DNA of 64,000 nt from Coriobacteriia bacterium (GTDB taxonomy: Bacteria > Actinomycetota > Coriobacteriia > WRKU01 > WQUG01): positions 6,689-70,688 of the forward strand of contig WQVS01000001.1 in NCBI GenBank assembly GCA_009785705.1. The letters are read 5' to 3'. The position numbers and the translations under genes were made by a program. This document shows positions 22,558-55,609 of the stretch, one piece after another. Position 1 is the stretch's first letter. The number at the start of each line of letters is the position of its first letter. The notes under the pieces were generated by a model. The model searched no databases and had not been told where the DNA came from. It saw only the letters and a program-made list of their open reading frames with translations.

Positions 22558-22560
22558 AGT

Positions 22561-22592
22561 TCTTATACCTATGTTGCAGCATAGGTTCTATG
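22561..22592. other. dif/att-like inverted repeat (7-bp arms, 6-bp spacer) directly after xerD. It could instead be the xerD terminator.
   Basis: ACCTATG ttgcag CATAGGT, with extended arms ttatACCTATG / CATAGGTtcta. Confidence 0.3.
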
Positions 22593-22733
22593 AAATTTGA
22601 ATCTATCAAAAGGTAGGCAACAGCAATCTGGTAATAACCCTCTCTGTTTGTAATAAAAAGAAGGCAAAATCTTGTGCTTCATAATAAAATATAGTGCAAT
22701 ACAGCTCCATCCGGCACTTTCGAGAGGACACAA

Positions 22734-25664: not shown

Positions 25665-26647
25665 ACGAGAGCGAGAGAGTAAGAATAGCAATTGAATGTG
25701 GGTGGCTAGTAGCTGGACTTCCAGCTGTCTCTTTTTCGCATTCATTATGCAATCTTTTGTCTGGATTCGGTAAGGCTGAAGAGGTATACCCTATGATATG
25801 TGGATGGACTGCATTTCACAGAAAAAATAATCCCATTGAACGAGCATATCACTATACAAGCATAGAAGGAATGGAAGGAATTTTACTTACACCTGTAAGC
25901 GTGAAAACATCATTAATCTCAAACCTTTGCGCGAATACTGATTTCTCAGATATGTTTGCAATGGGCGTTAAGCCAGTTGGTAGTAGCAACGACTCTTCGG
26001 AGGGCGGAGCATACTGTAAAGAGATTTTTGAGCTCATGCTGAGTGATATGCTAGAGGAAAAATTGATAACAGAATCATTTGTACAGCTTGTCAGTGATGT
26101 TATCTCTAGAGGAGATACATATAAAAAATGGCCAGAAATTCTTGAATATATGGCATGCTTTTCAGCAGCACGTGACAGCGAAACCATGTGGAAAGGCTAC
26201 AGTAATGGACAAGGAGTAGCTCTAGGGTTTGATTTTCAGAATTCCGAGCTACTTTTCCCACTGATGTACTTGCGGACAGAGCAAGAATTTTGTGTGCGCA
26301 AGGCGTGCGAGGCATTATGCAAAATATTCAATGAAGAATATATGCAGGGTAAGGATGAGGTTGAAAGGGCCATCAGCGCAGCATTTGAACTTTTTTCTGG
26401 GCGCTTCAAGAAGGAGGATTCTGTAGATGAGCAAGAGTGGCGGCTACGAATCATAGATGAAGATAATGAGTTTGGCGATAGAGTTAGCGATGAGCGCTTA
26501 TTGGTTGCCTTGCCAAAGTCCTATCTTAAAGAGATAATTTGTAGTCCAGGAACTTCTAACGAGCAGGTGGAAGAAATACGTCGAAGGCTCGAATCAGCAG
26601 GCTACAGCATAAATGTATCCACTTCGTTGCTGACAGTTGCGAATTGA
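25661..26647 (+). CDS. DUF2971-like hypothetical protein, translationally coupled to the RM gene
   Basis: Its start overlaps the RM stop (ATGA). It has a YHYTSIEGMEGIL-type motif typical of DUF2971. AT-rich composition. Confidence 0.4.
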   Translation: MNESERVRIAIECGWLVAGLPAVSFSHSLCNLLSGFGKAEEVYPMICGWTAFHRKNNPIERAYHYTSIEGMEGILLTPVSVKTSLISNLCANTDFSDMFAMGVKPVGSSNDSSEGGAYCKEIFELMLSDMLEEKLITESFVQLVSDVISRGDTYKKWPEILEYMACFSAARDSETMWKGYSNGQGVALGFDFQNSELLFPLMYLRTEQEFCVRKACEALCKIFNEEYMQGKDEVERAISAAFELFSGRFKKEDSVDEQEWRLRIIDEDNEFGDRVSDERLLVALPKSYLKEIICSPGTSNEQVEEIRRRLESAGYSINVSTSLLTVAN

Positions 26648-27281: not shown

Positions 27282-27616
27282 ATGGAAAATAGAGTGTCAT
27301 GGGGACGTATAACCTGACGCTTTTTGCTGGACTTGTAGCGAATAGCTTGAATCAGCATAAGCCGCAGGTGAGAGGAGTGGGCAGACTGCCCTATCCACTG
27401 TATCAGGCACTGTCCTAACCACTGACACTATCTTTGGTAGCACCGTCGACCACCGCATTGCAAAAGATTAGATGTATTGCGGGGTGTTAGTGCAGACACA
27501 TTTTGCTGGCTTGCGGGGATGGACAGTTCTTCCTCTGTCAGACCAGAGAACCCTTCTTCACTGAATGAACATGTGTTGCATATTGCGCTACTAAGAGAAG
27601 AGACCTATAATCGTTC

Positions 27617-27797
27617 CTAGTGTGTAGATGCCTGCAGAGTGGTGTAGGTTTTCTACTTTGAAATAGAAGAGTGCCAAAGAGAGATGCTTGACTACTATAC
27701 CGCGTCCCTTGGCCCTTACCTTAGTCCACTTACGTAGTTCGGATAACTGCGTTTGTATATAAAGTTTCTCGGTTACGATTTACGCGAAAGGAGAAGG
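27617..27797 (+). promoter_or_regulatory. Conserved non-coding element, copy 1, in the long leader of the tupABC-moco operon. It is a candidate Mo/W-cofactor-responsive riboswitch or regulator binding region.
   Basis: Shares the blocks CTAGTGTGTAGATGC, TTTTCTACTTT and GAAAGGA with the element at 37664-37817. It also shares a 49-nt core (27733-27781), identical except for one base. Confidence 0.4.
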
Positions 27798-28017
27798 CCC
27801 CTGCTTGCTGGGCTTCAATTGTCGAAAAGCAAGTAATTACCCGGAAAACTGAATACTGATTATGAATGGGCGTTATTGATTCCCATGACTGACCTGTGAT
27901 TATCGGCAGACTTTGTTATTCGCTGATTTTCTAGTCTTGAGTCGTGCCAGTCGTGCGTCTTTGTATCTCACTTTCATCATCGCATAATGAATTTTGATAC
28001 ATATTAAAGGAGTAGAT

Positions 28018-28902
28018 ATGTCTAGTTTTTCACGCACTAAAAAAGGAATTATAAGGCTCGTCACACTCAGTATTCTCGCAGGACTTTTGCTCATTTTTGC
28101 TGCCTGCACAAGTCCAGAAGAAAGCCCTGAGGTAGAAGAAGTTGCTACCGCCCCTGTTGAAGTAACTAACATGGTTTTAGCTTCAACTACTTCCACACAG
28201 GACTCGGGACTTTTCGAAGCTCTTATTCCCGCCTTTGAAGATGCTCATCCAGAAGTAAACGTTCAAGTTATTGCTGTTGGTAGCGGGGAAGCCATGGAAA
28301 TGGGTCGCAGAGGCGACGCTGACCTCCTTCTCGTTCACTCACCTGCAGCAGAAATCACCTTCATGGAAGAAGGCTATGGTTTAGAGCGCAGTCCTGTAAT
28401 GTATAACGATTTCATCATCATAGGGCCAGAAGATGACCCTGCCGATGTCGCAAGTAGTGCTGATGCAGCTGAAGCTTTTGCGCGCATTGCAGAATCAGAA
28501 TCCACCTTCGTTTCTCGTGGGGACGATTCAGGAACACATGCAAGAGAGATGTCCATTTGGGACTTGGCTGAGATAGAGCCAGAGGGCGATTGGTATCAGG
28601 AATCTGGACAAGGCATGGGCGCAACACTGCAAATAGCCGAAGAATTCCAAGCCTATACGCTTACTGATAGAGCAACTTATCTGAATCTCAATAATGAAGG
28701 CGTGCTAGAACTACCTATCTTAAGTGAGGGCTCAAATGAGCTTCTGAATTTCTATCATGTGATAACTCTCGTTGATGCAAGAGAACAAGCAGCAGCGCAA
28801 GCTTTTGCCGACTGGATTATCAGCCCTGCAGGTCAAGAAGTCATCGCTGGCTTTGGTGTAGAGGACTTTGGTGCTCCTCTCTTTACCCCGAACGCTGACT
28901 AG
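28018..28902 (+). CDS. tupA: Tungstate ABC transporter substrate-binding protein TupA
   Basis: TupA-specific TTSTQDSGL motif and a signal peptide. RBS AAAGGAG precedes ATG 28018. Confidence 0.85.
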   Translation: MSSFSRTKKGIIRLVTLSILAGLLLIFAACTSPEESPEVEEVATAPVEVTNMVLASTTSTQDSGLFEALIPAFEDAHPEVNVQVIAVGSGEAMEMGRRGDADLLLVHSPAAEITFMEEGYGLERSPVMYNDFIIIGPEDDPADVASSADAAEAFARIAESESTFVSRGDDSGTHAREMSIWDLAEIEPEGDWYQESGQGMGATLQIAEEFQAYTLTDRATYLNLNNEGVLELPILSEGSNELLNFYHVITLVDAREQAAAQAFADWIISPAGQEVIAGFGVEDFGAPLFTPNAD

Positions 28903-28952
28903 CAATTAAGGAATTGACCTTATATGACTAATCAGCAGAAAAGACAAGGCAC

Positions 28953-29681
28953 ATGAATCTTTCAGGACTACGCCTTTTTAGCGATGCCTTCGCGGATGGA
29001 TTTTCTTTGCTCGCGCAGGGTACCGTTGACTTGTGGAACATCATCCTTACTTCTCTGCAGGTCTCAGGTTTCGCAACAGGCATTGCTGTTGTTATCGGTA
29101 TTCCTGCTGGTTACTGGTTAGGGTCACGCAGAAATGTCCGCAGATTCACAGCTCTTGTCATAGCGAATGCTGGAATGGGCCTGCCACCTATCGTGGCAGG
29201 CCTTTTTGTATCGATGCTGCTTTCAAGAAGTGGTGTTTTTGGTGAACTGGGCTTGCTCTACACCAGACCAGCAATAGTTATTGTTCAAGTCGTTATCGCA
29301 ACTCCTGTCGTAGTGGCACTTACAGCGTCAGGTATATCTGCAGTTCCTGCACAACTTCGTCTGCAGGCGCGCTCACTGGGGGCAGGTCGCTTCCAAGAAA
29401 TTGCTCTTGCAGTGCGCGAGGCACGTCTCTCTATCCTGGGTGCTATTGCAGGTGGTTTTGGTGCAGTCATTAGTGAGGTAGGTGCTGTGCAAATGGTGGG
29501 GGGTAATCTGGCTGGACAGACTCAGGTTATGACAACAGCAATCATGCAGTATACGCGCATGGGCAGATTTGGCGTTGCTATGGCACTTTCAGTGATACTA
29601 CTCTCCATCATCATAGTAGTCAATGTCATCATAACTCGTGAACAGCTTCGTGATGAACGCTATACGAAGGCGCTCTCATGA
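28953..29681 (+). CDS. tupB: Tungstate ABC transporter permease TupB
   Basis: Type-I ABC permease fold with an EAA-like loop. Confidence 0.8.
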   Translation: MNLSGLRLFSDAFADGFSLLAQGTVDLWNIILTSLQVSGFATGIAVVIGIPAGYWLGSRRNVRRFTALVIANAGMGLPPIVAGLFVSMLLSRSGVFGELGLLYTRPAIVIVQVVIATPVVVALTASGISAVPAQLRLQARSLGAGRFQEIALAVREARLSILGAIAGGFGAVISEVGAVQMVGGNLAGQTQVMTTAIMQYTRMGRFGVAMALSVILLSIIIVVNVIITREQLRDERYTKALS

Positions 29682-30571
29682 TGGTAGATATGGCAAAGAC
29701 AGTAGCAATAGCAACAACAGCGGCGACTACTGCAAGGGCAACATCAGTGAAAACTGCAACAAAAGATATGAGAGTAATCAGTTCGCAAGAAGCTGACTAC
29801 AAGCTAGTGGCAGAAGGTCTTGCACTCCACTATCCTGATTTCTCTCTACAGATTGAGCGCTTCGGTCTCAAATCGGGTGAGATTGTAGCCCTTCTCGGGC
29901 CATCAGGTAGCGGCAAATCAACTTTGCTCATGTGTATGGCAGGACTCGAAAGCCCCAAAGAGGGCACAGTCTTTTTGGACGGGATCCAGCTTAGTCGCAG
30001 TCTTGCACAAAAGAGCATAGCAACCGTATTTCAGACGCCCTATCTCTTCAAGGGAAACGTTGGTTATAACGTGGCCTATGGTCTACGCATGCGCAAATTG
30101 CCAAAACAAGAGATTAAAGCGCGGGTAGCAGAGGTACTTGACCTAGTGGGACTCAAGGGCTGGGAACGCAGGTCAATCCTTGGACTTTCAGGGGGAGAAG
30201 CTCAGCGTGTTGCTCTTGCAAGGGGGTTGGTGCTTAGTCCCCAAGTCATGATGCTGGACGAACCCCTCTCATCTCTTGATGAGGCCTTGCGCAAAACGCT
30301 GTCAGTAGAATTCTCAGAAATCCTACGCAGCCAAAAGATTACGGTGCTCTACGTGACCCATTCAAAACAGGAAGCTTTCACTGTTTCAGATAGTGTGGCC
30401 ATTATGAAGTCAGGCCGCATTTTGGTGCATGACAGGCTGAAAAATCTGTTTAATGACCTGCAAGACGAATGGGTACAGGATTTCTTAGCTCCCGATGATT
30501 GGTGGCTAAAATTCAAAGAATCGGGGAACCAAGCAAGCAGTCAGGCTAAACAAACAAAGGAGTCACAATGA
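29678..30571 (+). CDS. tupC: Tungstate ABC transporter ATP-binding protein TupC
   Basis: Walker A GPSGSGKST, signature LSGGEAQRV and Walker B MLDEP. Confidence 0.8.
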   Translation: MMVDMAKTVAIATTAATTARATSVKTATKDMRVISSQEADYKLVAEGLALHYPDFSLQIERFGLKSGEIVALLGPSGSGKSTLLMCMAGLESPKEGTVFLDGIQLSRSLAQKSIATVFQTPYLFKGNVGYNVAYGLRMRKLPKQEIKARVAEVLDLVGLKGWERRSILGLSGGEAQRVALARGLVLSPQVMMLDEPLSSLDEALRKTLSVEFSEILRSQKITVLYVTHSKQEAFTVSDSVAIMKSGRILVHDRLKNLFNDLQDEWVQDFLAPDDWWLKFKESGNQASSQAKQTKESQ

Positions 30572-31863
30572 CACATACCAGCCTTAGTTTTGACAGAGCA
30601 CTTAAGCGTTGGCTTTCAACGATAGAGAGACTAGACCCAGAGACGGTACTCTTGGATGAATCTTTGGGACGTATTCTTGCCGCCGACCTCTCCAGTGATA
30701 TTGATGTGTCACCCTTCGACAATTCGGCGATGGATGGATTTGCTCTGCGCGCAAGAGACATTGCAAAGGCGAGTCCTGCCACACCTATCGATTTAGAGGT
30801 AGTTACCTGTATCGCTGCGGGCGACTATTGGGAGGGAACTCTTCAAGCAAGACAGGCCGCACGCATCATGACGGGTGCCCCGCTACCAGCAGGTGCCGAC
30901 ATCGTTGTTAAAGTTGAAGATACGACGAAGGCTGATAGTGACCAGCATGTTCGTTTTAGCTCGGCTGCATCCAGAGGCCTCAACATTCGCCTTAGGGGCG
31001 AAGAGATTAAAGCGGGGGAGCGCGTACTTGCTTCTGGCGAATATCTTGGCCCTGCAGCGGTCGGACTTTTAGCAGCAACGGGATATGTACAGGTGCCCGT
31101 GTTCAGGCAACCCACTGTAGCCATTATCTCAACAGGGGAAGAACTCATCCCTGTGGGTGACACACCAACACGCGGCAAGATTCGTAACAGCAATTCACAT
31201 TCACTAGCGGCTCAGGCTCAGGCCGCAGGTGCAAGGGTGCGCCAGTATGCAAGCATTCCCGACACACTTGAGGACACCGTTGCAACGTTTAGGCAGGCAA
31301 GCACAGAATGCGACATCATCATATCAAGCGGTGGCGTATCAGTAGGAGACTTCGACTTTGTGGAAGAGGCTGTCCAATCACTGGGTGATTTGCACTTCTC
31401 CACCGTCAAAATGCGGCCAGGCAAACCTCAGGTAACAGGCATGATTAACAAACTCCCTTTCTTTGGATTGCCTGGAAATCCCACTTCTGCCTATTTGGGC
31501 TTTGAGCTCTTTGTTCGTCCAGCGATTCTCAAAATGGCAGGACATACTCGCTTGCAAAGACCTGTCCAAACAGCAGTACTAAGTCACGACATTAAAAAAC
31601 GTCAGGGCTTGCGCTATTTCATGCGCGGCAGAGTACGTCTAGCAGATATTCAGGAACCAGCAGAACCTTCTTCTTCTGCGAACGCACAGGACAGGGCGCA
31701 CAGTCATCTTGTGCAGGTCACGGGAAATCAGTCAAGCGCACTGCTAGGTTCACTCCATGAAGCTAATTGTCTTCTTGTTCTGCCTGAAGAAGAGACAGAG
31801 CTAAAAGCAGGAACAGTTGTTAAATGTATTCGTCTTGATATGGAAGAAAGGGTGGAACTGTAA
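30568..31863 (+). CDS. moeA: Molybdopterin molybdenum/tungsten transferase MoeA
   Basis: MoeA motifs (SPFDNSAMDGFA; GGVSVGD). Confidence 0.9.
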   Translation: MTHTSLSFDRALKRWLSTIERLDPETVLLDESLGRILAADLSSDIDVSPFDNSAMDGFALRARDIAKASPATPIDLEVVTCIAAGDYWEGTLQARQAARIMTGAPLPAGADIVVKVEDTTKADSDQHVRFSSAASRGLNIRLRGEEIKAGERVLASGEYLGPAAVGLLAATGYVQVPVFRQPTVAIISTGEELIPVGDTPTRGKIRNSNSHSLAAQAQAAGARVRQYASIPDTLEDTVATFRQASTECDIIISSGGVSVGDFDFVEEAVQSLGDLHFSTVKMRPGKPQVTGMINKLPFFGLPGNPTSAYLGFELFVRPAILKMAGHTRLQRPVQTAVLSHDIKKRQGLRYFMRGRVRLADIQEPAEPSSSANAQDRAHSHLVQVTGNQSSALLGSLHEANCLLVLPEEETELKAGTVVKCIRLDMEERVEL

Positions 31864-32966
31864 TGACACCTTTGGTGAGCAAGGGACGCACTATAGACTA
31901 TTTGCGCATCTCACTAACGGACCGCTGTGATTTGCGCTGTGTATATTGCATGGGTGCTGATGGAATAGAGGACAAGCTAGACAGAGAATTGATAATGTCT
32001 CTAGAGGACGTGGCGCAATTTGCCCGTATCGCCTGTGCAGAAGGCATTAAATATATTCGTTTGACAGGCGGTGAACCCTTAGTGCGACTAGGCATCGTTG
32101 ACCTAGTAAGGGAACTATCACAGATTCCTCAACTTGAAGACTTGTCGATGACCAGTAATGGACAGCTTTTTGGTAAATATGCTGAAGACCTGAAGAATGC
32201 TGGTTTATCTCGCATTACTTTTTCTCTAGATTCTACTGATGCGACTACCTATGAAAAGCTTACACGTGGGGGAGACCTAGTAAAGGTCTATTCAGCTATC
32301 GATGAGGCATTAAGATTGGGGTATAGCCCCGTCAAAATTAATGCGCTTGCTTACCAGCTGACAGAAGACGATTTGCTCAATTTTATACGTATGACAGAGG
32401 AGAAGCCCATACATGTCCGCTTCATCGAGTACATGCCCATAGGCTTTGTGGGCAGGGAGGCGCGCAAGTGTCCAACCCCACCCCCTTGCTTAGCCCTTTC
32501 AGCTCAGTCTACTGCAGCTGCAGACTGCTCAAATAATGCGACAGAAAGCAGGCCAGAAGCACATCAAAGCAAGCCTTTGCTGACTATGGGCCAAATTCGA
32601 GATGCAATCAATGAGCTTGCTTCTACAAGGGGCTTAAGTGAACTGAAGCCTTTAAAGAGAGAAAAGGCCCCCTTAGGGCATGGGCCAGCTAGCTCCTATG
32701 CTTTTGATGAGGCACAAGGCAGCTTTGGTTTTATCGCTGTGCATTCGCAAAATTTCTGTGCAGACTGTAACAGGCTGCGCCTTACTGCTGATGGAAAAAT
32801 TCGCTCCTGTCTCTTTTCAGATCTAGAGATTCCTATAGGGGCAGCACTGCAAACGAAAAACAGGGACAGTCTGCGAGCAAGCTTATTGCAGGCTGTAGCT
32901 AGCAAGCCATTATCATATGCACAACAGCAGGGTACAAAGCGCACTATGTCAGCCATCGGTGGCTGA
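31863..32966 (+). CDS. moaA: GTP 3',8-cyclase MoaA (radical SAM)
   Basis: CDLRCVYC radical SAM cluster motif and a C-terminal second-cluster region. It also has an insertion of about 40 aa. Confidence 0.9.
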   Translation: MTPLVSKGRTIDYLRISLTDRCDLRCVYCMGADGIEDKLDRELIMSLEDVAQFARIACAEGIKYIRLTGGEPLVRLGIVDLVRELSQIPQLEDLSMTSNGQLFGKYAEDLKNAGLSRITFSLDSTDATTYEKLTRGGDLVKVYSAIDEALRLGYSPVKINALAYQLTEDDLLNFIRMTEEKPIHVRFIEYMPIGFVGREARKCPTPPPCLALSAQSTAAADCSNNATESRPEAHQSKPLLTMGQIRDAINELASTRGLSELKPLKREKAPLGHGPASSYAFDEAQGSFGFIAVHSQNFCADCNRLRLTADGKIRSCLFSDLEIPIGAALQTKNRDSLRASLLQAVASKPLSYAQQQGTKRTMSAIGG

Positions 32967-33096
32967 GCTGTTTTGGTGGCACCTAGGTGATGTATCGTAA
33001 GGCTCACGTAGATTTTGCTTCACCTTTCGATGCATCACCTATGCACTCGCCAAAACAGCTCATATTACCTATAGATTTTATTAGGGAAGGATTATT

Positions 33097-34074
33097 ATGT
33101 TTACTCATCTTGACTCTAAGGGACAAGCTTCCATGGTTGATGTGGGGGATAAGCTCACTACTCACCGGGTGGCAATCGCTTCCTCCTTTATCCAGATGAA
33201 CAGTGCTACTCTGAATGCCATCAAGGGTGACGCTCTGAAAAAGGGCGATGTGTTAGCAACTGCACGTATCGCAGGGATTCAGGCAGCAAAGCGCTGTTCA
33301 GAACTTATCCCTCTCTGTCATCCTCTGCTCATAAGTAGGGTGGCAATAGACTTTGAATTTGTCGAAAGGGTACAGAGGGATACCAAAGCTGTTCAAGAAG
33401 GCGCTAAACCCGAACAAGACAACAAGCCCTGCGGAATACGCTGCTTTGCGACAGTCACACTGACAGGTCAAACGGGCGTAGAGATGGAGGCTCTAACAGC
33501 AGCCTCTGTGACAGTACTTACCATCTTTGACATGGCGAAAGCAGTCGATAAAAACATGAGTATCGACGCTATACGCCTTGAATACAAATCGGGGGGTAAA
33601 AGCGGTATCTTTGCAACAGGTCAGGCAGGAATGGTATTAGCCATCAACCTCTCAAAAGAAACTGGGGAGCAAAAGGTCAGTACCACAGAAGCGGTAGATT
33701 TCATTGAAGGGCATGGAATAGAGAGCGATGCCCATGCAGGGGATTGGCACAGACAGATTTCGCTTCTTGACCAATCATCAGTAGACCAGCTTATTGCAAA
33801 GGGCCTAACACTTAAGCCGGGCGACTTTGCTGAAAACATCACAACATCAGGATTTTCACTTCAGACCTTGCCTGTCGGCAGCAGACTGCGCCTAGGTCAA
33901 GCTCTGCTCGAAATCACCCAAATTGGAAAAGAATGTCATACTCGCTGCGCCATCTATCAGCAGGCAGGTGACTGCGTCATGCCACGTGACGGAGTATTTG
34001 CAGCAGTTATTGAGGGCGGCAAGGTAAGAGCTGGTGACACCATGTATCTGCTACAACAACAAAAGGAAATCTAA
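33097..34074 (+). CDS. moaC: Fusion: cyclic pyranopterin monophosphate synthase MoaC plus a MOSC domain
   Basis: The N-terminal ~160 aa are MoaC (SHLD...MVDV; CHPL). The C-terminal ~150 aa form a MOSC beta-barrel ([10 protein letters not shown]...GDFAENITT). Confidence 0.8.
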
Positions 34075-34541
34075 TGAGGTTAGCAATAATAACTTGCTCT
34101 GACACACGTAGCCTTGCTGAAGATGAAGCAGGCCACGCCCTGGCAAAGCGCATCACAGCTCGCAAGTGGGAGCTGTGCCAGCACATGGTAGTGAAAGATG
34201 ACATGCAGACAATTGAAGCTCGCTTAAAGCACTGCTCCGACGCACTAAAGGCTGATGTGATTCTGACCTGTGGCGGAACAGGTCTTAGCTCTCGTGATGT
34301 TACTCCAGAGGCTACCTTGGCTGTTGCAGATAGAGTAGTACCTGGTATAAGCGAAGCAATACGCCAGGCATCTCTTGATATCACAAAGTGCGCAATGCTT
34401 TCACGCGCAGTGAGCGTGCAACGTGGCACAACTCTTATAATAAACTTACCTGGTTCTAAGAACGCGGCGCTTGAATGCCTTTACGTGTGTATTGACCAAC
34501 TAGAGCACGCAGCAGATATGATGGCAGGGAAAGGACACTAG
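34074..34541 (+). CDS. mog: Molybdopterin adenylyltransferase MogA/MoaB
   Basis: MogA fold with the GGTG motif (LTCGGTGLSSRDVTPEA). Confidence 0.8.
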   Translation: MRLAIITCSDTRSLAEDEAGHALAKRITARKWELCQHMVVKDDMQTIEARLKHCSDALKADVILTCGGTGLSSRDVTPEATLAVADRVVPGISEAIRQASLDITKCAMLSRAVSVQRGTTLIINLPGSKNAALECLYVCIDQLEHAADMMAGKGH

Positions 34542-34550
34542 GCAGCTAGT

Positions 34551-36143
34551 ATGAGCAATATTGAAAATTTAAGTAAGCATTCGCTTCCTCTTACGGCAGT
34601 AATACTTGCAGGTGGACGTTCGCTGCGTATGGGTGTTGATAAAACACAGGTTGACCTTAGCGGAATACCCTTGCTTGCGCATGCAGTAAACAATGCTTCA
34701 GATTTTGCTAGTCAGATTATTATTGTGACAAATCGTCCCGATTCGATTGTCATAGACGACTTTCAAATAGAGGTCGAAATTGTCACCGATGAAATTGCTT
34801 ACCAGGGGCCCTTAGGTGGTCTGTCCACTGCTCTTAAGGTTGCACAAAATGAATGGGTTGTTGCTCTGGCAGCTGACATGCCTTGGGTGTCGAAGGAGGT
34901 CATTTCTGCTCTCTGGGACGCACGCGGTGATGGTAGTGCTGGGAACAACTCCAGTGGTCTCTCAGGCAATTCTGCCGATAGCCCTGTTGATAATGTCGCC
35001 ACCAACAACTTCGATGTAGTGGTTCCCGTTTCAGACAATGGTCCAGAACCTCTTCTTGCTCTCTACAGGCGGGACAGCATGCTTCAGGCTGCACAAGAGG
35101 TCTTAGACTCAGGTAAACGCCGCATCATCGCAGCCTACCCCGCCTTGCATGTACATGAGATAAACCTTGAATCCCTGCAACAAGTTGACCCCCATCTCAT
35201 ATCTTTCTACAACGTTAATACGCAGACTGACCTTATGGCAGCGCGCAAGTATGAGCAGGCGCGAAAAGCAGCAGATGAAAGAAGTCGTTCCTCAGATACA
35301 AAGGATACAGATACTGACAACAGTGCAGATGAGCTATTGGCTGCTCAAGAAATTATCCCTCACGATTTCAAGCGAGGAGACATACGAGTACTATCCCTAG
35401 AGGAAACAGGTCGCAGCATCCCTACAGAATCTCCCTTTACCATCTATCTCAATGACGTCGAGATTGCCACTGTACAGGCAAGCGATGATGACCTTGAAGA
35501 CATGGCAGTTGGATTCTTGCTTGCAGAGGGTCTATTGCACGACAGGTCTGCGTTCAAGTCAGTTGACCTCGATGCAAAGAGGGGTCTTATCTATGTAGGC
35601 TCAGATGAACTTGTCCCCGAAGATTTGGTATACCGTACACGCTACATTACCTCTGGTTGTGGCAAAGGAATAACTTTCTCAAGTCTTGGTCATGCCCGTG
35701 GCCTGGAAAAGATTACCCAGGAGCTGAAAGTTTCACCGCATGACCTCTACTACTGGATGAGTGAGCTGTCCAAACGCAGTGCAGAACATAGGGAACGGGG
35801 AGGCTACCACTCCTGCGGACTTGTTCTTTCGGGGGAGCTGCAGCTAGTTCGTGAAGATATAGGACGCCATAATGCTGTTGATAAATTGCTTGGTCAGGCC
35901 TGGCTAGAAGGCATGCCCATTGGGCAGGGGATAGTGCTGGTGAGCGGACGCATCTCCTATGAAATGATTGTTAAGGCGGCAAAAAGTAAGATTCCCTTTA
36001 TTGCGTCAAGGTCAGCTGCAACAGATTTGGCAGCAGAGATTGCCCAGGACTTAGGTATTACTTTAGTGGGTTATGTGCGCGGAGGGAAGATGGTTGCCTA
36101 CACTCATCCAGAGCGCATAGCAAATGAGGGATCAGATGCCTGA
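34551..36143 (+). CDS. Fusion: MobA (Mo-cofactor guanylyltransferase) plus FdhD (sulfurtransferase for formate dehydrogenase)
   Basis: The N-terminus has the MobA motif LAGGRSLRMGVDK. After a low-complexity linker comes an FdhD domain (GRHNAVDKLLGQAWLEG with a Cys-bearing loop). Confidence 0.8.
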   Translation: MSNIENLSKHSLPLTAVILAGGRSLRMGVDKTQVDLSGIPLLAHAVNNASDFASQIIIVTNRPDSIVIDDFQIEVEIVTDEIAYQGPLGGLSTALKVAQNEWVVALAADMPWVSKEVISALWDARGDGSAGNNSSGLSGNSADSPVDNVATNNFDVVVPVSDNGPEPLLALYRRDSMLQAAQEVLDSGKRRIIAAYPALHVHEINLESLQQVDPHLISFYNVNTQTDLMAARKYEQARKAADERSRSSDTKDTDTDNSADELLAAQEIIPHDFKRGDIRVLSLEETGRSIPTESPFTIYLNDVEIATVQASDDDLEDMAVGFLLAEGLLHDRSAFKSVDLDAKRGLIYVGSDELVPEDLVYRTRYITSGCGKGITFSSLGHARGLEKITQELKVSPHDLYYWMSELSKRSAEHRERGGYHSCGLVLSGELQLVREDIGRHNAVDKLLGQAWLEGMPIGQGIVLVSGRISYEMIVKAAKSKIPFIASRSAATDLAAEIAQDLGITLVGYVRGGKMVAYTHPERIANEGSDA

Positions 36144-37548
36144 TTTTATCTATCTAGACCAAGCTGCGACTAGCTGGCCAAAACCGCAAGCTGTCGCTGA
36201 TACCATGCTTGATGCCCTGAATATTCCTGGTAGCCCCAGTCGCAGTGCGCATATAGGAGCACGGAGGGCAGAGCAGCTACTGACTCAATCACGGAAAACA
36301 GCCGCAGCATTTTTGGGAGTAAAGAATCCTCATAACTTAATTTTTGTCCCGGGTGCGACCTTTGGATTGAATGTGGTTCTTAGAGGTGCTTACCAGCAGT
36401 TTTCAAATACGCGTAACAAAAACATAGTTAGTGAAAATGCTAAGAATGCCAAGAAAGATGTTAGCACCTCAGGCGCTACAGCTGCCATCGCGAGCATTGC
36501 TTACAGTGGTGGCGAACACAATGCTGTCACGCGCACCCTAGCAGAATGTGTACAAGCTCAGAAATCTGTTCAGGACCTTAATCGAAATCAAGTCAAGACA
36601 GAAGCAGAAACAGAAATCGAAGCAGAAGCAAAAGCAGAAGCAAGAAATTCTCAAGCACTCATTGAAATCCCCCTAGAATCTAATGGACGACTTTGCCTTA
36701 GGCGTACTGAAGAAATACTTAAAGATACGCGTCCCTTCGCTTTTGTTTGTCAGCATGCCTCTAATGTTACGGGCATTATTAATCCTATTGAGAAGATTGC
36801 CCAGGTATGTTCAAGGCTAGATATTGCCCTTATTGTTGATGCTTCGCAGACTGCAGGGCATTTGCCTATGCAGTTAGACGACCTAGCTCAGATAGGCATG
36901 AGTGCTTGGGTATGTCCGGGGCACAAGGGCCTTATGGGACCAGCAGGAAGCGGTCTCGTATACTTAGCAGAAAACTTTAAGCCGCGCCCGCTAGTGACGG
37001 GTGGTACAGGTAGCGGTGAACACTTCATTGATTATGGTGACGAATGCGACACTATAGAGCGACCCGCTGATTACGAGGCAGGAACCCTGGCGCTTCCAGC
37101 AATAGCAGGACTAGCAGCAGGAATATCTTGTATAGCTGAAAGCTTTGAGGAAGATTCCTGTTATGTCAACGGACTGACGGAGCAAATGCTAAATGGTCTT
37201 GCAAGCATTAAGGGGATACAAATCTTAGGCCTACCTTGTGCTGATGGCAAAGAGGACATCCAGGCCCAAGGTAATAGCCATTCTTCCTATCGCCTGCCGC
37301 TGGTCTCAATTGTGGCAGATGACATTCCCTCGAGTGAACTCGCCTTTCTGCTAGATGCTCGCTACATAGCAGCGCGTGCAGAATTTCATTGTGCACCTCT
37401 TACTCATAGGTACCTAAACACCTACCCCGATGGGGCTCTGCGTCTTAGCTGGAACGTCAGTAATGCTCCCAGAGAAATCGAGGCGGCCATAGCTGCCATC
37501 AAGGAAATAGTGAATTGCAAATCAAGGGATAGTTATGTGCATGACTGA
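36136..37548 (+). CDS. Cysteine desulfurase-family class V aminotransferase with an Ala/Glu-rich insertion. It is the likely sulfur donor for FdhD.
   Basis: NifS/IscS-like N-terminus (YLDQAATSWPKP), a PLP Lys region (GHKGLMGPAGSG) and a C-terminal Cys loop. The start is ATG 36124 or 36136. Confidence 0.7.
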   Translation: MPDFIYLDQAATSWPKPQAVADTMLDALNIPGSPSRSAHIGARRAEQLLTQSRKTAAAFLGVKNPHNLIFVPGATFGLNVVLRGAYQQFSNTRNKNIVSENAKNAKKDVSTSGATAAIASIAYSGGEHNAVTRTLAECVQAQKSVQDLNRNQVKTEAETEIEAEAKAEARNSQALIEIPLESNGRLCLRRTEEILKDTRPFAFVCQHASNVTGIINPIEKIAQVCSRLDIALIVDASQTAGHLPMQLDDLAQIGMSAWVCPGHKGLMGPAGSGLVYLAENFKPRPLVTGGTGSGEHFIDYGDECDTIERPADYEAGTLALPAIAGLAAGISCIAESFEEDSCYVNGLTEQMLNGLASIKGIQILGLPCADGKEDIQAQGNSHSSYRLPLVSIVADDIPSSELAFLLDARYIAARAEFHCAPLTHRYLNTYPDGALRLSWNVSNAPREIEAAIAAIKEIVNCKSRDSYVHD

Positions 37549-37663
37549 CCTTTGCTTGCAAATAGGACTTCAGCAGCAAGGAAATAGCTTTGCTATTGCT
37601 TAAAAATATTTTAGAGAGTATATGAACTATTGTGTCAATTGAGTAAAAGGCTTAGAATGGTTA

Positions 37664-37817
37664 CTAGTGTGTAGATGCTTGCTTTTTCAGAAGTTTTCTA
37701 CTTTTAATGTGCCGCCCTTCAAATGCTAAAGGCACCCTACATAGGTAACATGCGTAGTTCGGATAACTGCGTTTGTATATAAAGTTTCTAGGTTACGATT
37801 TTTGTGAGAAGAAAGGA
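37664..37817 (+). promoter_or_regulatory. Conserved non-coding element, copy 2, in the leader of the fdh operon
   Basis: Same conserved blocks as copy 1. The 49-nt core at 37753-37801 differs from copy 1 only at 37790 (A versus C). Confidence 0.4.
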
Positions 37818-37947
37818 CTCACTACCTGCAAAAATTATGCCAGTGCGAAGCTGGATGATTTCTGTCAAATTTCATTTTGCGGGTAAACCATGAAACAACT
37901 GAATATTTGGTTCTTAAATGAACTGCATCTTCTTGGAAGGAGAATGT

Positions 37948-40900
37948 ATGCACGAGATGACTCGTCGTAATTTCCTTAAGGTGCTCGGTGCTGCTTTCGC
38001 AGTAAGCTCGTTGACTGGTTTAGCTAAACCAAAGACCGGCTTTGCTGCTGGAGCAGAAACTCTAGAGTTCCGTATTAAGGATGCCACAGAGACAACTTCA
38101 ATTTGCTGTTTCTGTAGTTTAGGCTGTGGCGGTATCGCTTCAGTTGTAGAGGGGAAACTAGTTTCCTTTGAGGGTGACCCAGATAGCCCCATTAATGAGG
38201 GTGGTCTGTGTTCTAAGGGTGCTGCGCAGTTTAACGTGGTCAATGTTTATAATCCAGAAACAGGCGACATGACTCTTAACCCGAAACGTTTGACAAAGCC
38301 CAAGTATCGCGCAGCAGGCGCAAGCGAATGGGAAGAAGTCGAATGGGATTGGATTATCAGGCGCATTGCAGAAAAGGTTAAAGAAACGCGCGATGCAAGC
38401 TTTGAAACCATCAGTAATGGAGTCACCGTAAATCGTACGCAGGCAATTGCGCACCTTGGTTGTGGCGCACTGCCCTGTGAAGATTTGGGCCCACTTCAAA
38501 AACTGCAACGTGCACTAGGCATTATTTATATTGAGCATCAAGCTCGCCTGTGACACAGCTCAACTGTTGCCGGTCTTGGCAACTCGTTTGGGCGCGGTGT
38601 AATGACAAATCACTATACTGATATGCAAAACACCGATGTCTTTATTGTCTGCGGTTCAAACAACGCAGAAAATCATCCCGCTAGCATGAGGCACGTTAAT
38701 CGTGCGCGTGAAAAGGGTGCAAAGCTCGTCGTTATTGACCCGCGCTTCACCCGTACGGCTGCTACTGCGGATCATTACTACCAGATGCGTTCTGGAACTG
38801 ATATTGCGCTCTTCGGTGGAATCATCAACTACCTTCTGCAAAATGACCTGTACAACAGATCTTATGTAGAAGAATATACAAACGCATCGTATCTTGTTAA
38901 TCCAGAATATGACTTCTCAGACGGTATGTTCAGTGGATTTTCAGGGGAAGAAGGTCCAGCAGCCTACGATAGAGCTAGCTGGAGCTATCAAATTGAAGGT
39001 ACGACAGAATGGGATACCTCAGAAGACGGACAATATGCCTGGGTAGCAGGTGAGGGTGTGCCAGAATTTACGACACCCGCTGTACCTGAGGTTAAAAAAG
39101 ATCCCAGCATGCAAGACCCAAACTGCGTTATGCAGCTCATGAAAAAGCACTATGAGCGCTACACGCCAGAAACGGTGTCACGTACCGTCGGTATGTCAGA
39201 ATCAGATTTCTTGGAAATCTGTGAAATCTACGCAAGTACTGCAGCAGATGACCGTAGCCTAAATTGGCTGTATGCCATGGGTATTACTCAACATTCAAAG
39301 GGCTCGCAAAATGTACGCGCGAAATCAATGATTCAATTGTTGCTGGGCAACATGGGTATTGCTGGTGGTGGTATTGCAGCACTACGTGGTAAGTGCAATA
39401 TTCAAGGTTCAACAGACTTTGGTCTACTGCACAACATTTTGCCTGGTTATAATCCTGTGCCATCAGAGGGTGGAACGCCTACTCTGCGTGCCTATAATGA
39501 GGGCACAGCACACAGCGGATTCTGGGCAAATAGACCACGTTTCATAGTGTCAAAACTCAAAGAATTCTGGGGCGACCATGCAACGATAGACAATGATTAC
39601 TGCTTTGACTATCTGCCAAAGCTCGGCTCAAAGACAAACTACTCCTTCATGGAAATCTTCGAGGAAGCACATGCGGGCAAAATCAAAGGCCTTTTCTCTT
39701 GGGGTATGAATCCTGTAGTAGGTGGACCGAACTCTAATCGTACTCGTGGTGGTCTTGCAAAACTTGATTGGCTAGTCAGTGTTGATGTCTTTGAGAATGA
39801 CACCTCTAACTTCTGGTCAGTACCACTTGAAGAGGGTGGAGAAGCGACTCCGGAAAGTATCGATACAGAAGTATTCTTGCTTCCAGCAGCTTCACACATT
39901 GAATCAGAGGGAACCATCACTAACTCTGGCCGTTGGGCACAGTGGCGTTATGCTGCCCTTAATCCCATAGGTGAAGCCTTGCGTGACGGTGAAATCATGA
40001 CCCGTCTTTTCCGCGCTTATCAAGAGGTCTATGCAGAGGGTGGAGTATTTCCAGACCCCATCATGAACTTGACCTGGGATTATGTTGATGAAAATGGAAA
40101 CTTTGATTCGCGTAGAGTTGCTCAGGCAATTAACGGTTACACCGTTGAAGATAGACAGCTGCTTTCTGGCTTTGGTCAACTGCAGGCAAACGGTACGACA
40201 GCCTGTATGAACTGGATTTACTCTGGCTATTACAGTAACAATGAAGATCCCTTGAATCCTGCTGTTCAGCCTTGCGGTGCACGCGATGCAAGTGATAGAA
40301 CGGTATCAGGACTTGGGGGCGGACTAAAGCAGTTCCCGCAATGGGCTTTTGCTTGGCCACTTAATCGTCGTATTGTATACAACCGTGCTTCGACGCATAA
40401 GGACACAGGACTTGCACGTAATCCTGAAAGAATCCTCGTGCAGTGGAACGGAAACAATTGGGATAGAAACGACGTGCCAGACTTTGCTTTCCAGAGACCC
40501 GTGGGTACTGACCCAGTGATAGGGGAACCGACCTTTGAGGGAATCCATCCAGAAAACTGTCCTGCCTTCTTTATGAACGCAGAGTATGTTGCGCGCCTCT
40601 TTGCGCCTGGCATGGTCGATGGACCCTTTGCAGAGCATTATGAACCCTACGAATCTCCCATCAATAATCCGCTGTCAGGACGCCAAAACATTCCTACGGC
40701 ACTTGTTTTCGAAGAAGCAAGCAGACTAGGCACTGCAAGCGAGTTCCCCATTGTCGCAACGACTTGGCGTGTAGTAGAGCATTGGCAGAGTGGTACCATT
40801 ACCCGAAATTTGCCTTATCTAGGCGAAGCTATGCCGCACATGTTTGTTGAAATTTCTGAAGAGCTTGCTGAGGAAAAGGGCATCTCAACAGGGGACAGGG

Positions 40901-41136
40901 TAGAGGTCTTTAACAATCGAGGAGTCGTTGAAGTATATGCCATGGTGACAAAGCGCATGAAGACCTTGAAGGTTGACGGCAAAAATGTTCACCAACTAGG
41001 CATGCCTTGGCACTGGGGTCAGGTTGGCATGGCTCGCGGGGCAAGTGCAAATACGCTTACACCGAGCGTAGGAGACGGAAATACCTTTATCCCGGAATAC
41101 AAAGCATTCCTGGTAGATATCAGGAAGGTGGGGTGA
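37948..41136 (+). CDS. fdhA: Formate dehydrogenase catalytic subunit (Mo/W-bisPGD). It contains selenocysteine and is Tat-exported. The in-frame UGA at 38551-38553 is read as Sec.
   Basis: Twin-arginine signal MTRRNFLKVLGAAFA. Two ORFs (ending 38553, restarting 38602) lie in the same frame. The context ...HQARL-U-HSSTVAGLGNSFGRGVMTNH matches the Sec site of FdnG/FdhF. A [4Fe-4S] Cys motif is at the N-terminus. Confidence 0.85.
38554..38600 (+). ncRNA. Bacterial SECIS-like hairpin immediately 3' of the Sec UGA
   Basis: GTTGCC-GGTCTT-GGCAAC at 38566-38583, with GGUC in the apical loop, 13 nt after the UGA. Confidence 0.5.
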
Positions 41137-41141
41137 TGTAG

Positions 41142-42101
41142 ATGGCTAGTAGTATAGCGATTTTATTTGATGCTTCAAAATGTACCGGCTGCAAGGGCTG
41201 TCAGGTTGCTTGTAAGCAATGGAACCAACTTCCCGCACCGCTGGACTTCGGTGACGCACCCTTTTCTGGGTCCTATGAATCTCCTGCGGAGAACTCGGGT
41301 GATACGTGGCTTAGGGTAACTTTTGATGAGATTGAACCCAGAGAAGACGAAGTAACGATTGCCTTTGGTAGAGACGCCTGTAGACATTGTGCGGATGCGC
41401 CCTGTGTTAGCGTCTGCTCTTCAGGGGCATGCCACAAAACCAGTAATGGTGCTGTAGCTATTGATTCATCGAAGTGCTTTGGTTGCCAGTATTGCATCGC
41501 AGCCTGTCCCTTTGATTCGCCAAAGTTTTGTGAGCGCGAGAAAAAGGCTAAGAAGTGCAGTCTTTGTCAGGACCGTTTGCAAAATGGACTTACTCCCTCG
41601 TGCATGAAGTCATGTACAGCAGACGCACTTGATTTTGGGGCAAGGTCAGACATGATTGCAAAGGCTCAAAGAAGGGCACTGGAAATCAAGTCAAAGTTCC
41701 CCAATGTTGAAGTCTATGGCGTTAATCAAATGGGTGGTCTCGGAGTAATCTCCATCCTTCCCTTTGGGGCGGACAGCCACAGAGAAATGGTGAACCCGCA
41801 AGCACCGCTTATGACACAGATAGGGAACATGCTTCCTACTGTGGCAGGCGTAGGTGTTCTAGGTGCTTTAGGAGTAACAGCACTGGCCTTTATGGGTGGT
41901 CGTGGTTCAGGTTACAGCGAAGAGCAGTACACCTATGACAATGTTCGCAGGGTTACCTGTGATGGTGGTAAGCCCATGGATCCTAATGCTCCTATTGTGA
42001 AACTTGGATTGAAAAAAGAAGAGAAGGCCGACACAAAAGAAGTTAAAGCAAGCAAGAAGACGGTAAAGGCTTCCGAAGGTGAGGTGAAGAAAAATGACTA
42101 G
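41142..42101 (+). CDS. fdhB: Formate dehydrogenase iron-sulfur subunit (FdnH-like, four [4Fe-4S] motifs, C-terminal TM anchor)
   Basis: Several CxxCxxCxxxCP motifs, then one TM helix and a Lys-rich tail. Confidence 0.85.
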   Translation: MASSIAILFDASKCTGCKGCQVACKQWNQLPAPLDFGDAPFSGSYESPAENSGDTWLRVTFDEIEPREDEVTIAFGRDACRHCADAPCVSVCSSGACHKTSNGAVAIDSSKCFGCQYCIAACPFDSPKFCEREKKAKKCSLCQDRLQNGLTPSCMKSCTADALDFGARSDMIAKAQRRALEIKSKFPNVEVYGVNQMGGLGVISILPFGADSHREMVNPQAPLMTQIGNMLPTVAGVGVLGALGVTALAFMGGRGSGYSEEQYTYDNVRRVTCDGGKPMDPNAPIVKLGLKKEEKADTKEVKASKKTVKASEGEVKKND

Positions 42102-42771
42102 GTATATTAGACGTCATAATTTCTGGGCTCGCTTCGTGCATTGGGCATATGCCGTTTTTGGTATTGTTTTGCTTATTACAGGCCTAGCTCTTTTCGTGCC
42201 AGGATTAGGTAAGGTTTTAGGGTTTGAAGTTTTGCAGGCCTCATCTTGGGTGCACAGAATTGTGGGAATCCTTTTTGTAGCAGTGCCGATTATTGGTTAC
42301 CTTGCAAAGCCCAGCAACTTGAAGCACATTTTCCAAAATCTGTTCCGCAGGTGGGATAAGGATGATGTTGACTTCATGAAGTTCTTCCCGCTTTACCTGT
42401 TTAATCCTAAAAAGTACCATATGCCAAAGCAGCACTATATTAAGTCAGGACAAAGAGCATCTGACATTGTTATGTACCTGCTTATCTTGATATTTATGAT
42501 TTCTGGTGTCTTGATGCTTATCGGTACGGGCATTCTTCCTGTGTGGATTTTCGCTATTGCGAAGTTTGCTCATCAGATTGCCTTTGTTATCTTTGCCATT
42601 CTTTTGGTGGTGCACATCTTCTTGGGTGCAGGAATCTTCCAGCCTTATCGCCGCTTGCCGCGCGGTATGTTCGGAGACGGACTTGTTTCAGAGTCTGATG
42701 CGCTGTATCACTGGGGTCACTGGGCAGAGGAAGAGCTTGCCAGTGGCGAAAATGTTGTAGAAAAGTCTTAA
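42094..42771 (+). CDS. fdhC: Formate dehydrogenase cytochrome b subunit (FdnI-like)
   Basis: Four TM helices with conserved His heme ligands (HWAY..., HRIVG, HQIAF, HIFLG). Confidence 0.75.
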   Translation: MTRYIRRHNFWARFVHWAYAVFGIVLLITGLALFVPGLGKVLGFEVLQASSWVHRIVGILFVAVPIIGYLAKPSNLKHIFQNLFRRWDKDDVDFMKFFPLYLFNPKKYHMPKQHYIKSGQRASDIVMYLLILIFMISGVLMLIGTGILPVWIFAIAKFAHQIAFVIFAILLVVHIFLGAGIFQPYRRLPRGMFGDGLVSESDALYHWGHWAEEELASGENVVEKS

Positions 42772-55523: not shown

Positions 55524-55609
55524 GCCGGAGTGGCGGAATGGCAGACGCGGTGGATTCAAAATCCATTGGGGGCAACCCCGTGAGGGTTCAAATCCCTCCT
55601 CCGGCACCA
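55524..55609 (+). tRNA. tRNA-Leu (anticodon CAA) with an encoded CCA end
   Basis: Manual fold. Acceptor stem GCCGGAG/CTCCGGC. Anticodon loop TTCAAAA. Long variable arm GGGGGCAACCCCGT. T-arm GAGGG-TTCAAAT-CCCTC. Discriminator A then CCA. Confidence 0.85.

Follow-up and report, generated by a model that had tools for sequence, protein, structure and literature searches.

Genes for molybdate and tungstate uptake (tup/mod), for cofactor synthesis (moa) and for molybdo- and tungsto-enzymes are controlled by ModE and TunR-type regulators (helix-turn-helix, HTH, plus periplasmic-binding-like domain), which act through DNA operators at promoters. To our knowledge, the Moco/Tuco riboswitch (molybdenum and tungsten cofactor; RF01055) is so far the sole RNA known to report Mo/W-cofactor status, and we know of no published in vitro ligand binding for it, for which the instability of the cofactor is believed to be the reason. 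RF01055 governs tungstate/molybdate transport, cofactor synthesis and cofactor-dependent enzymes, often by sequestration of the ribosome-binding site (RBS) (PMC2408646; PMC11725836). A form of RF01055 that lacks its P3 was linked to the tungsten cofactor by Regulski et al. 2008 (PMC2408646), and in Eubacterium limosum Tuco riboswitches stand before tupABC and before the WOR1 tungstoenzyme operon, where RBS sequestration has been proposed (PMC11725836).

The DNA analyzed here (hereafter the window, meaning the whole stretch of 64,000 nt) belongs to contig WQVS01000001.1 of a Coriobacteriia bacterium (assembly GCA_009785705.1). Its sequence is identical to ENA metagenome contig ERZ27257300 k141_11172, the proteins of which are labelled “MAG: Coriobacteriia bacterium” (MAG, metagenome-assembled genome); all coordinates below refer to the + strand. 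The window holds two copies of a leader element, each located ahead of the first gene in a W/Mo-related operon: the first copy stands before tupA and the cofactor-synthesis genes behind it, and the second before fdhA, the gene of a selenocysteine (Sec)-containing formate dehydrogenase. The second copy, originally noted at 37664-37817, is best read as the 5′ half of a structured fdhA(Sec)BC 5′ leader of ~285 nt (~37665-37950). The most fitting description of the element is a new class of cis-regulatory leader RNA, analogous in function to the Moco/Tuco riboswitch yet outside that family, and its best explanation, to which we assign a probability of about 0.58, is that this new family is a candidate riboswitch for W/Mo-cofactor status acting on translation.

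Like RF01055, the element would be a cis-acting 5′ leader RNA on W/Mo transporter, cofactor-synthesis and cofactor-enzyme genes, with several copies per genome on different operons; the RBS sequestration proposed for many RF01055 members would be a further likeness. Unlike RF01055, it has other helices and junction sequences and no GNRA tetraloop/receptor pair, it is much longer, with extra hairpins between the conserved domain and the Shine-Dalgarno (SD) sequence, and it is known so far from one Coriobacteriia clade. With ModE and TunR it has its target genes in common; however, those regulators bind operators at promoters, whereas the new element follows the promoter and shows its conservation in RNA secondary structure. 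Literature searches returned nothing that describes it.

Covarying helices in two leaders and their homologues

The original prediction placed the second core copy exactly 10,020 nt after the first, which an exact 37-mer (CGTAGTTCGGATAACTGCGTTTGTATATAAAGTTTCT) at 27733-27769 and 37753-37789 (offset 10,020) bears out. Such a two-fold match occurred in 0/100 shuffles, none being expected by chance, and no third copy was found in the window with up to 3 mismatches allowed. Alignment of both regions extends the 37-mer to a block B of 49 nt (CGTAGTTCGGATAACTGCGTTTGTATATAAAGTTTCTmGGTTACGATTT; 27733-27781 vs 37753-37801), in which 48/49 bases are identical, and a length-variable segment parts it from an upstream block A (CTAGTGTGTAGATGCyTGC...GTTTTCTACTTTnAA; 27618-27662 and 37664-37709). 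Scanned with a covariance model of the core, the window yields these two copies alone (93.2 and 90.1 bits); no other match exceeds 8.8 bits. The interval 37664-37817 is only partly right as a description of the element: it starts near the predicted transcription start and lies within the conserved leader, but it is too narrow, ending inside a leader that runs to 37950 and is about twice as long. Nor is the 49-nt core self-contained; it consists of the 3′ arm of hairpin P3, a junction, and the strands that form the 5′ side of a long-range helix.

Homologous leaders were collected from FdhA N-terminal homologues and their contigs, from TupA homologues, and by one exact-pattern scan each of genome and metagenome collections; such scans miss diverged copies, and L030 and L032 were found through proteins alone. 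Besides the window, 8 contigs carry the element in front of fdhA (L027, L020, L005, L021, L015, L026, L013, and L007), with FdhA N-terminal fragments 78-92% identical to that of the window, and 6 carry it in front of tupA (L030, L032, L034, L022, L023, and L025). All element-carrying contigs come from Coriobacteriia MAGs or metagenomes; the related ones stem from Joint Genome Institute (JGI) metagenomes and from MAGs Lab288P1bin60 and Lab288P1bin96, and we take these MAGs and the source metagenomes (among them JGI 3300010162, 3300010167, and 3300009826) to be from termite guts. No copy stands before the fdhA of L016, which is more distant (65% identical), before the second, tandem fdhABC operon of L007 (14795-15112), or in L035 (TupA 74% identical), the sequence of which ends 175 nt upstream of tupA. 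A metagenome match in L029 was set aside as chance, with the hairpin missing and a score of 21 bits.

Three helices of the fdh leader keep their pairing while their sequence changes among these relatives. The 5′-terminal hairpin P1 (37671-37701; GUAGA-U-GCUUGC...GAAGU-UUU-UCUAC) is paired in 95.4% of cells over 12 leaders, with both sides changed in 6 of its 9 pairs and slid controls at 59.3% or less; it is missing from the L022-type tup leaders. P3 (37752-37772), an 8-bp hairpin of the form GCGUAGUU-CGGAU-AACUGCGU with a conserved YRGAU loop, is paired in 91.4% of cells over 16 leaders (both sides changed in 6/8 pairs; slid controls ≤55.5%). P5 (37823-37885), in which UACCUGCAAA (37823-37832) pairs with UUUGCGGGUA (37876-37885), is paired in 84.4% over the nine fdh leaders (6/10 pairs; slid controls ≤59.5%). 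For each of P1, P3 and P5, the covariation score was reached by 0/500 shuffles, a control that ignores relatedness. In L022, L023 and L025 the P3 stem is wholly re-coded (GGCUU-UGGAU-AAGCC, vs GUAGUU/AACUGC), with the YGGAU loop and the closing U-A pairs kept. Scanning the core alignment blindly for covariation, all columns against all, gave too noisy a result, the alignment consisting of 16 related sequences. The idea of a conserved leader with compensatory structure is hence upheld by P1, P3 and P5, whose pairing survives double substitutions. What the original prediction had put forward as compensatory structure was the hairpin of the variable segment; that hairpin, P2 (GUGCC-N17-GGCAC, 37709-37735), is present, as is a different, longer one at the same place in copy 1 (~27673-27713), but it is optional and length-variable and is no strong evidence by itself. 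Its fold energy (-7.0 kcal/mol, z ~-1.8) is marginal on its own, homologues have unrelated hairpins at the position and L005 and L015 have none, and P2 and the flanking intergenic DNA could not be aligned in the same comparisons.

The copies appear to be transcribed. A putative sigma-A promoter of the fdh operon at 37630-37658 (-35 TTGTGT, 37630-37635; 17-nt spacer; -10 TAGAAT, 37653-37658) would start transcription at ~37664-37667, and copy 1 has its counterpart at 27583-27611 (TTGCGC, 27583-27588; 17-nt spacer; TATAAT, 27606-27611). The pattern TTGYNN-16/18 nt-TAnAAT stands 8-12 nt before P1/block A in 12 of the 13 P1-containing leaders; in the L022-type tup leaders, from which block A and P2 are missing, TTGCAA-17-TACyCT lies directly upstream of what remains. 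A sigma-70 consensus scan flagged no promoter (the -35 matches 3/6), and the assignment is drawn from conserved position; because this position is conserved upstream, the element would lie downstream of the transcription start. Two other promoters were considered and rejected: a sigma-54 promoter just upstream of P3 (GGCAC/TGGCC-N-TTAG) has a poor, unconserved -12 element, and a second promoter inside the core (TTGTAT-N-TACGAT) has a spacer that ranges from 14 to 17 nt among homologues.

These data bear on the possibility that the element is instead a DNA promoter/operator for a tungstate/molybdate-responsive factor of the ModE/TunR type, its hairpins being palindromic sites. The ModE box is ATCGnTATATA-N6-TATATAnCGAT, and by inspection the TATATA...ACGAT of the core resembles half of it; P3 is an imperfect palindrome, both copies precede operons that are usually under such regulators, and a LysR-type HTH_1+PBP_like regulator is encoded near the tup operon of the related contig L038. 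However, the core has a single TATATA with no inverted second half-site, between GUAUAU and AAGUUUCU the spacing differs by 0-3 A residues, the conserved -10 box precedes the element, and the window encodes no ModE, TOBE or PBP_like regulator. The stems speak more directly. Their sequences are replaced with pairing kept (P3 in L022; P1 in L032, L015, and L026), which disfavors a sequence-specific operator, and they are kept partly through G·U pairs (16 cells in P3, 14 in P1), which are mismatches in duplex DNA. On the minus strand pairing falls from 91% to 81% in P3 and from 95% to 83% in P1, so that the G·U pairs make the signal specific to the + strand. We regard an operator as very improbable, and a transcribed, structured cis-acting RNA as very probable.

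The tup-moa leader (copy 1, 27583-27857 with its promoter) follows the same order. P1 (27624-27656), P2 (~27673-27713), P3 (27732-27752), the junction (27753-27781) and the purine-rich segment X (27786-27797) are followed by a hairpin GCCC..GGGC (27797-27813), the loop of which (UGCUUGC, 27802-27808) pairs with GCAAGUA (27829-27835), and by UACC/GAAAAC/UGAAUA (27838-27855). The order X, UGCUUGC/GCAAGUA helix, AAYY, GAAAAC, UGAAUA is that of the fdh leader, the helix being the counterpart of P5. Its pairing covaries (UGUUUGC/GCAAACA in L032; UACUUGC/GCAAGUA in L030 and L034), and, its 5′ strand being the loop of the GCCC/GGGY hairpin, it may form a pseudoknot. In the tup leaders the partner of the junction's GGUU shows C-to-U changes only (AACC, UACC, AAUCC, AAUC, AAUU), by which G-C or G·U pairs are kept. 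R2, a covariance model for which only the nine fdh leaders were used, spans all 169 positions on the tup leader of the window (27719-27857, 81.3 bits), and likewise all 169 on those of L034, L030, L032, L022, and L025 (85.6 to 38.8 bits), with the P5 pairs compensated in the alignment (uaCCuGca/ugCaGGua vs UACUUGC/GCAAGUA). Because a model made from fdh leaders aligns full-length to tup leaders, the common fold of the two copies reaches past the 49-nt core. This answers the structure-aware test for a common fold that the original prediction had proposed, and it is the opposite of the outcome named there as favoring a protein operator, namely conservation of a DNA core with no shared structure beyond chance: the shared helices covary.

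The near-identity of the copies within the window could also reflect a functionless segmental duplication or gene conversion of a promoter-leader, or a small repeat or mobile element, with an attenuator at an upstream open reading frame (uORF) as the sole regulation. Core identity of 48/49 and identical P3 stems within the genome fit that account, and so do the uORF-like frame correctly noted between the element and fdhA (ATG 37837, 18 codons, TGA 37891-37893) and the flagging of P3 with the following UUUGUAUAU as terminator-like. Yet there are two copies only, with no terminal repeats and no transposase. Several relatives carry the element in both the tup and the fdh context, and divergence is concentrated in the stems and compensated there, which makes any duplication old and under selection. 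The attenuator fares no better. Upstream ATGs are unconserved in position, length and start codon: the frame at 37837 has no counterpart in any homologue and therefore plays no part in the mechanism, no ATG precedes -30 in L013, and ATG 37890, in the conserved block GGUAAACCAUGAAACAACUGAAUA, is replaced by ACG in L013, L015, and L027 and missing from L026; the conservation around it is therefore not coding. We accordingly rejected leader-peptide attenuation. P3 as an intrinsic terminator was likewise rejected: a scan flagged it, but its stem has 3 G-C pairs and the U-tract is unconserved, UUUG after P3 being CUGG in L005, CUUG in L007 and absent in L015, where the 3′ arm runs straight into GUAUAU; no conserved intrinsic terminator was found in the leader. 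A functionless duplication is, in sum, the least credible of the accounts given here, marginally behind the operator.

The two window copies are alike beyond their core. P3 stem and loop are identical (27733-27751 = 37753-37771, the outermost pair being A-U vs G·U), and the 5′ ends (27618-27636 vs 37664-37682) are almost identical, whereas the tup and fdh leaders of relatives differ at 3-4 stem positions (L027 vs L030; L020 vs L032). The identical P3 stems suggest either gene conversion between the leaders or co-evolution with a common partner.

Relation to the Moco/Tuco riboswitch

Both leaders occupy the locations typical of RF01055, as leaders of W transport/cofactor-synthesis and cofactor-enzyme operons. 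Rfam returned no family at gathering threshold for either of them, and at E up to 10 only chance matches at the level of snoRNAs and miRNAs. RF01055 itself was not found at gathering (36 bits) in the window or in 9 related loci, nor at E up to 10 with permissive filters on 37500-38000 and 27450-28050; positive controls scored 103.6 bits (E. coli moaA leader) and 56.9 bits (L038). The RF01055 architecture, that is the CGAGCC/AGGG/CCUCCC/GGAAAGG junction, the P2 receptor and the P4 GAAA tetraloop, has no match in the new leaders.

The second of these controls provides the closest comparison. L038, a Coriobacteriia MAG farther removed from the window (GCA_016938135.1, JAFGVD010000008.1; TupA 59% identical), carries an orthologous tupABC-mobA/fdhD-moeA-mobB-moaA-moaC... 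operon, and a canonical RF01055 at 9883-10012, with its P3 deleted, abuts the tupA start; the new element is absent from this locus, as is RF01055 from the scanned loci that carry the new element. The new leader and RF01055 hence take the same position on orthologous tup operons in different lineages. A few kb upstream of the L038 riboswitch lie genes for the LysR-type HTH_1+PBP_like (TunR-like) regulator and for a TetR protein.

The shared regulon and position invite the reading that the new leader is a highly diverged or rearranged RF01055 descendant, and thus a member of the known family. The 3′ end of the L038 riboswitch, CCUCCC-GUUAC-UUG-GAAAGGAG, moreover shows the same order as the tup junction of the window, UUUCUCG-GUUAC-GAUUUACGC-GAAAGGAG. 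But GAAAGGAG is largely ribosome-binding site, and GUUAC is weakly conserved in RF01055 (“gUauU”; GUAUC in E. coli). The cmscan result on both leaders, set beside the scores of the controls, the absence of the defining CGAGCC/AGGG/CCUCCC junction, of P2 with its tetraloop receptor and of P4 with its GAAA loop, and the lack of any counterpart to P1, P3 and P5 in the RF01055 consensus further argue against descent, which we consider improbable.

A replacement of this kind would have parallels. Several unrelated riboswitch classes serve one ligand in the cases of SAM-I to SAM-VI and of preQ1-I/II/III, and there, as here, orthologous genes of neighboring lineages have a known riboswitch in one lineage and a structurally unrelated RNA in the other. 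For the SAM and preQ1 classes, however, ligand binding has been demonstrated, whereas the ligand proposed below is drawn from gene context and orthologous replacement. A bolder version of the candidate riboswitch would make it an unprecedented class for the tungsten branch (Tuco, the metal-free pterin intermediate, or tungstate) that displaced the Moco/Tuco riboswitch in one Coriobacteriia lineage, with a shared aptamer and two expression platforms, by which the uptake/biosynthesis genes and the tungsten- and selenium-dependent formate dehydrogenase would answer to one signal, possibly with opposite sign; we put this forward tentatively, as the odds seem to us to be against it.

A candidate switch acting on translation

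Like riboswitches in general, the fdh leader is a conserved structured 5′ untranslated region element with covarying helices around conserved unpaired nucleotides. After P3 comes a near-invariant junction (UUGUAUAUAAAGUUUCUAGGUUACGAUUU, 37773-37801; consensus UUUGUAUAUAAAGUUUCUmGGUUACGAUUU), whose columns are (nearly) invariant in 16 leaders. It contains the 5′ strands of P4a (GUUUC, 37784-37788) and P4b (GGUU, 37791-37794), which RNAalifold pairs with 37892-37896 and 37886-37889, respectively, giving an interrupted P4 helix stacked on P5; the 3′ strands (P4b AACC, P4a GAAAC) and a conserved AACUGAAUA occupy 37886-37905. The large internal loop so predicted holds the invariant ACGAUUU and the purine-rich, SD-like segment X (GAGAAGAAAGGA, 37806-37817; pattern GARAGGAGAAG), of which GARAGGRGAAGG is present in all leaders. 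Inside P5 lies the hairpin P6 (CCAG-UGCGAAG-CUGG, 37840-37854), with a GCGAA-type loop and a stem that, by inspection, varies among relatives (CCAG/CUGG, UGGC/GCCA, CUGAC/GUUAG). P7 (GUUC-UUAAAU-GAAC, 37910-37923) is re-coded to CUCA-UUA-UGAG in L026 and gives way to longer hairpins in L005 and L007. The leader ends in a predicted SD-sequestering hairpin, UGCAUCUUCUU-GGA-AGGAGAAUGUA (37924-37950; RNAalifold), which covers the SD (37937-37942) and the fdhA ATG (37948-37950); in the form UGCAUCUCUU-GGA-AGGAGAAUGUA, adjoining the start codon, it is almost invariant in the nine fdh leaders. Two further pairings are ambiguous in register: GGUAAC upstream of P3 with GGUUAC of the junction, which shows a possible compensatory change in L007 and mismatches in several sequences, and UUUCU of the junction with AGAAG of X, which shows a U:A to C:G change in L030, the pyrimidine and purine runs pairing in several registers.

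In the mechanism that we propose, the 5′ strands of the junction would pair just 3′ of P5 and close a domain whose internal loop holds the invariant bases. This domain would be an aptamer that reports W/Mo-cofactor status by sensing Tuco/Moco, a pathway intermediate or possibly tungstate. The output would be translation initiation, the SD and start codon lying within a conserved hairpin with an anti-SD strand, and X, as an SD mimic buried or released by the aptamer, would compete for that strand. Given a riboswitch, it is likely that the ligand belongs to the W/Mo-cofactor pathway; that the RNA is a riboswitch rather than a protein-dependent leader is somewhat better than an even bet, and the switch between X, anti-SD and SD as drawn here is a tentative sketch. 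SD bases are paired with a mean predicted probability of ~0.8-1.0 across 14 leaders; 26 genes of the window taken as controls have a mean of 0.69. X is similar to the SD (GAAAGGAGAAG vs GGAAGGAGAAU), and in 8/14 leaders no other upstream segment pairs better with the anti-SD strand; in the remaining leaders GAUGC, from the 5′ strand of P1, pairs with GCAUC of that strand. The conserved P1 5′ strand AGAUGC is complementary to GCAUCU of the anti-SD region in the fdh leader (37926-37931 vs 37674-37679) and to GCGUCU in the tup leader (27959-27964 vs 27627-27632), which may reflect a long-range 5′-3′ interaction. In the L022-type tup leaders, which are without P1, the downstream motif is interrupted (GCGUUUCU).

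Several considerations weigh against a riboswitch of this design. Transcription start, ligand binding and regulation are predictions, and the homologues belong without exception to one narrow clade, so that the covariation events are few and phylogenetically non-independent. Whole-leader fold energy is unexceptional (z -1.4 to -1.6 for fdh, -0.3 for tup), P4 is weak or irregular in the tup leaders (-1.6 to -6.9 kcal/mol), and P4 and the SD hairpin, being invariant in the fdh leaders, offer no covariation. Of the control genes, 23% also reach an SD pairing probability of 0.9, and the complementarity of X to the anti-SD strand, which ranks X first in 8/14 leaders, is of a purine-vs-pyrimidine, low-complexity kind easily met by chance. 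One sensor would have to serve both enzyme and uptake/biosynthesis operons, with both repressed or with opposite logic. Finally, near-invariant single-stranded sequence would suit a protein-binding site equally well.

This last point leads to a structured leader RNA sensed in trans, in which a W/Mo- or formate-responsive RNA-binding protein, or a small RNA (sRNA), would bind at the invariant junction and the P3 loop, with translation or mRNA stability as the output. In the longest conserved stretch (~29 nt), which is predicted to stay mostly unpaired, it is the primary sequence that is conserved; the same holds for the YRGAU loop of P3, as is typical of protein and sRNA sites, and GGA motifs are shared by the P3 loop, X and the SD. 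The complementarity of P1 GAUGC to anti-SD GCAUC in fdh leaders is compatible with such control, as are the identical P3 stems of the window copies, which could have co-evolved with a shared factor where orthologues differ, unless gene conversion made them so. On the other hand, no candidate regulator gene adjoins either operon in the window or in the loci of relatives, the P3 loop GGA reads AGA in L027, against a CsrA-type site, and we know of no CsrA in this lineage. An orthologous operon has a metabolite riboswitch precisely where the element lies, and conserved bases in an internal loop closed by covarying helices are the usual layout of an aptamer. On balance a trans-acting factor seems to us rather unlikely, and the candidate riboswitch is preferred.

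If the candidate riboswitch is real, an unrelated RNA with the same job on orthologous operons would be a second, independent handle on the species that is sensed, be it cofactor, intermediate or oxyanion, and it would show one sensor joined to different expression platforms for uptake/biosynthesis and for an enzyme operon. It would also add a regulatory layer to formate metabolism; formate/H2 turnover is central in the termite gut. With the covariance models, leaders of this kind can be annotated in Coriobacteriia MAGs, in which they now pass as unannotated intergenic DNA.

Operons and surrounding genes

The Sec-containing formate dehydrogenase operon expected downstream of the second copy is there: fdhA (37948-41136), which encodes the alpha subunit with a twin-arginine (Tat) signal, has an in-frame TGA at 38551-38553 and is followed by fdhB (41142-42101), fdhC (42094-42771), an FdhE-like gene and then mobB. 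Gene callers cut fdhA into pieces of 201 and 844 aa in all relatives, and no Rfam selenocysteine insertion sequence (SECIS) family reached gathering score downstream of its TGA. Copy 1 is followed by an operon at 28007-37548 (SD 28007-28012; tupA ATG 28018) in the order tupA, tupB, tupC, moeA, moaA, moaC-MOSC, mog/moaB, mobA-fdhD and the cysteine desulfurase gene csd. TupA is a binding protein of the tungstate type, its homologues bearing the title “tungstate transport system substrate-binding protein.”

The surroundings of the leaders vary among relatives. An HTH/HipA toxin-antitoxin pair (L007:8081-9645) separates the cysteine desulfurase gene from the fdh leader in L007, and in L020, L021, and L026 that gene is inverted relative to fdhA, with the leader kept. 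A bacterial RNase P RNA (L032:189-650, 298 bits) lies ~2 kb upstream of the tup leader in L032. In the window, the region just upstream of the tup leader (21631-26647) encodes a XerD-like recombinase and has a 976-aa open reading frame that seems restriction/methylase-like by the look of its sequence; it also holds a weak match to DUF2971 (E 4e-4), right at the 22-bit Pfam cut-off. L030 has recO and era where the window has this recombinase region, which may be an inserted island ending near the copy 1 promoter.

Farther downstream, a thiamine transporter gene (Thia_YuaJ/ThiT) and then a thiamin-pyrophosphokinase-like gene occupy 61385-62005; no thiamine pyrophosphate (TPP) riboswitch was found upstream of them at Rfam gathering score, the region not having been examined beyond the Rfam scan. 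A long-arm tRNA (55524-55606, 60.3 bits) follows a dnaK-grpE-dnaJ-MerR cluster.

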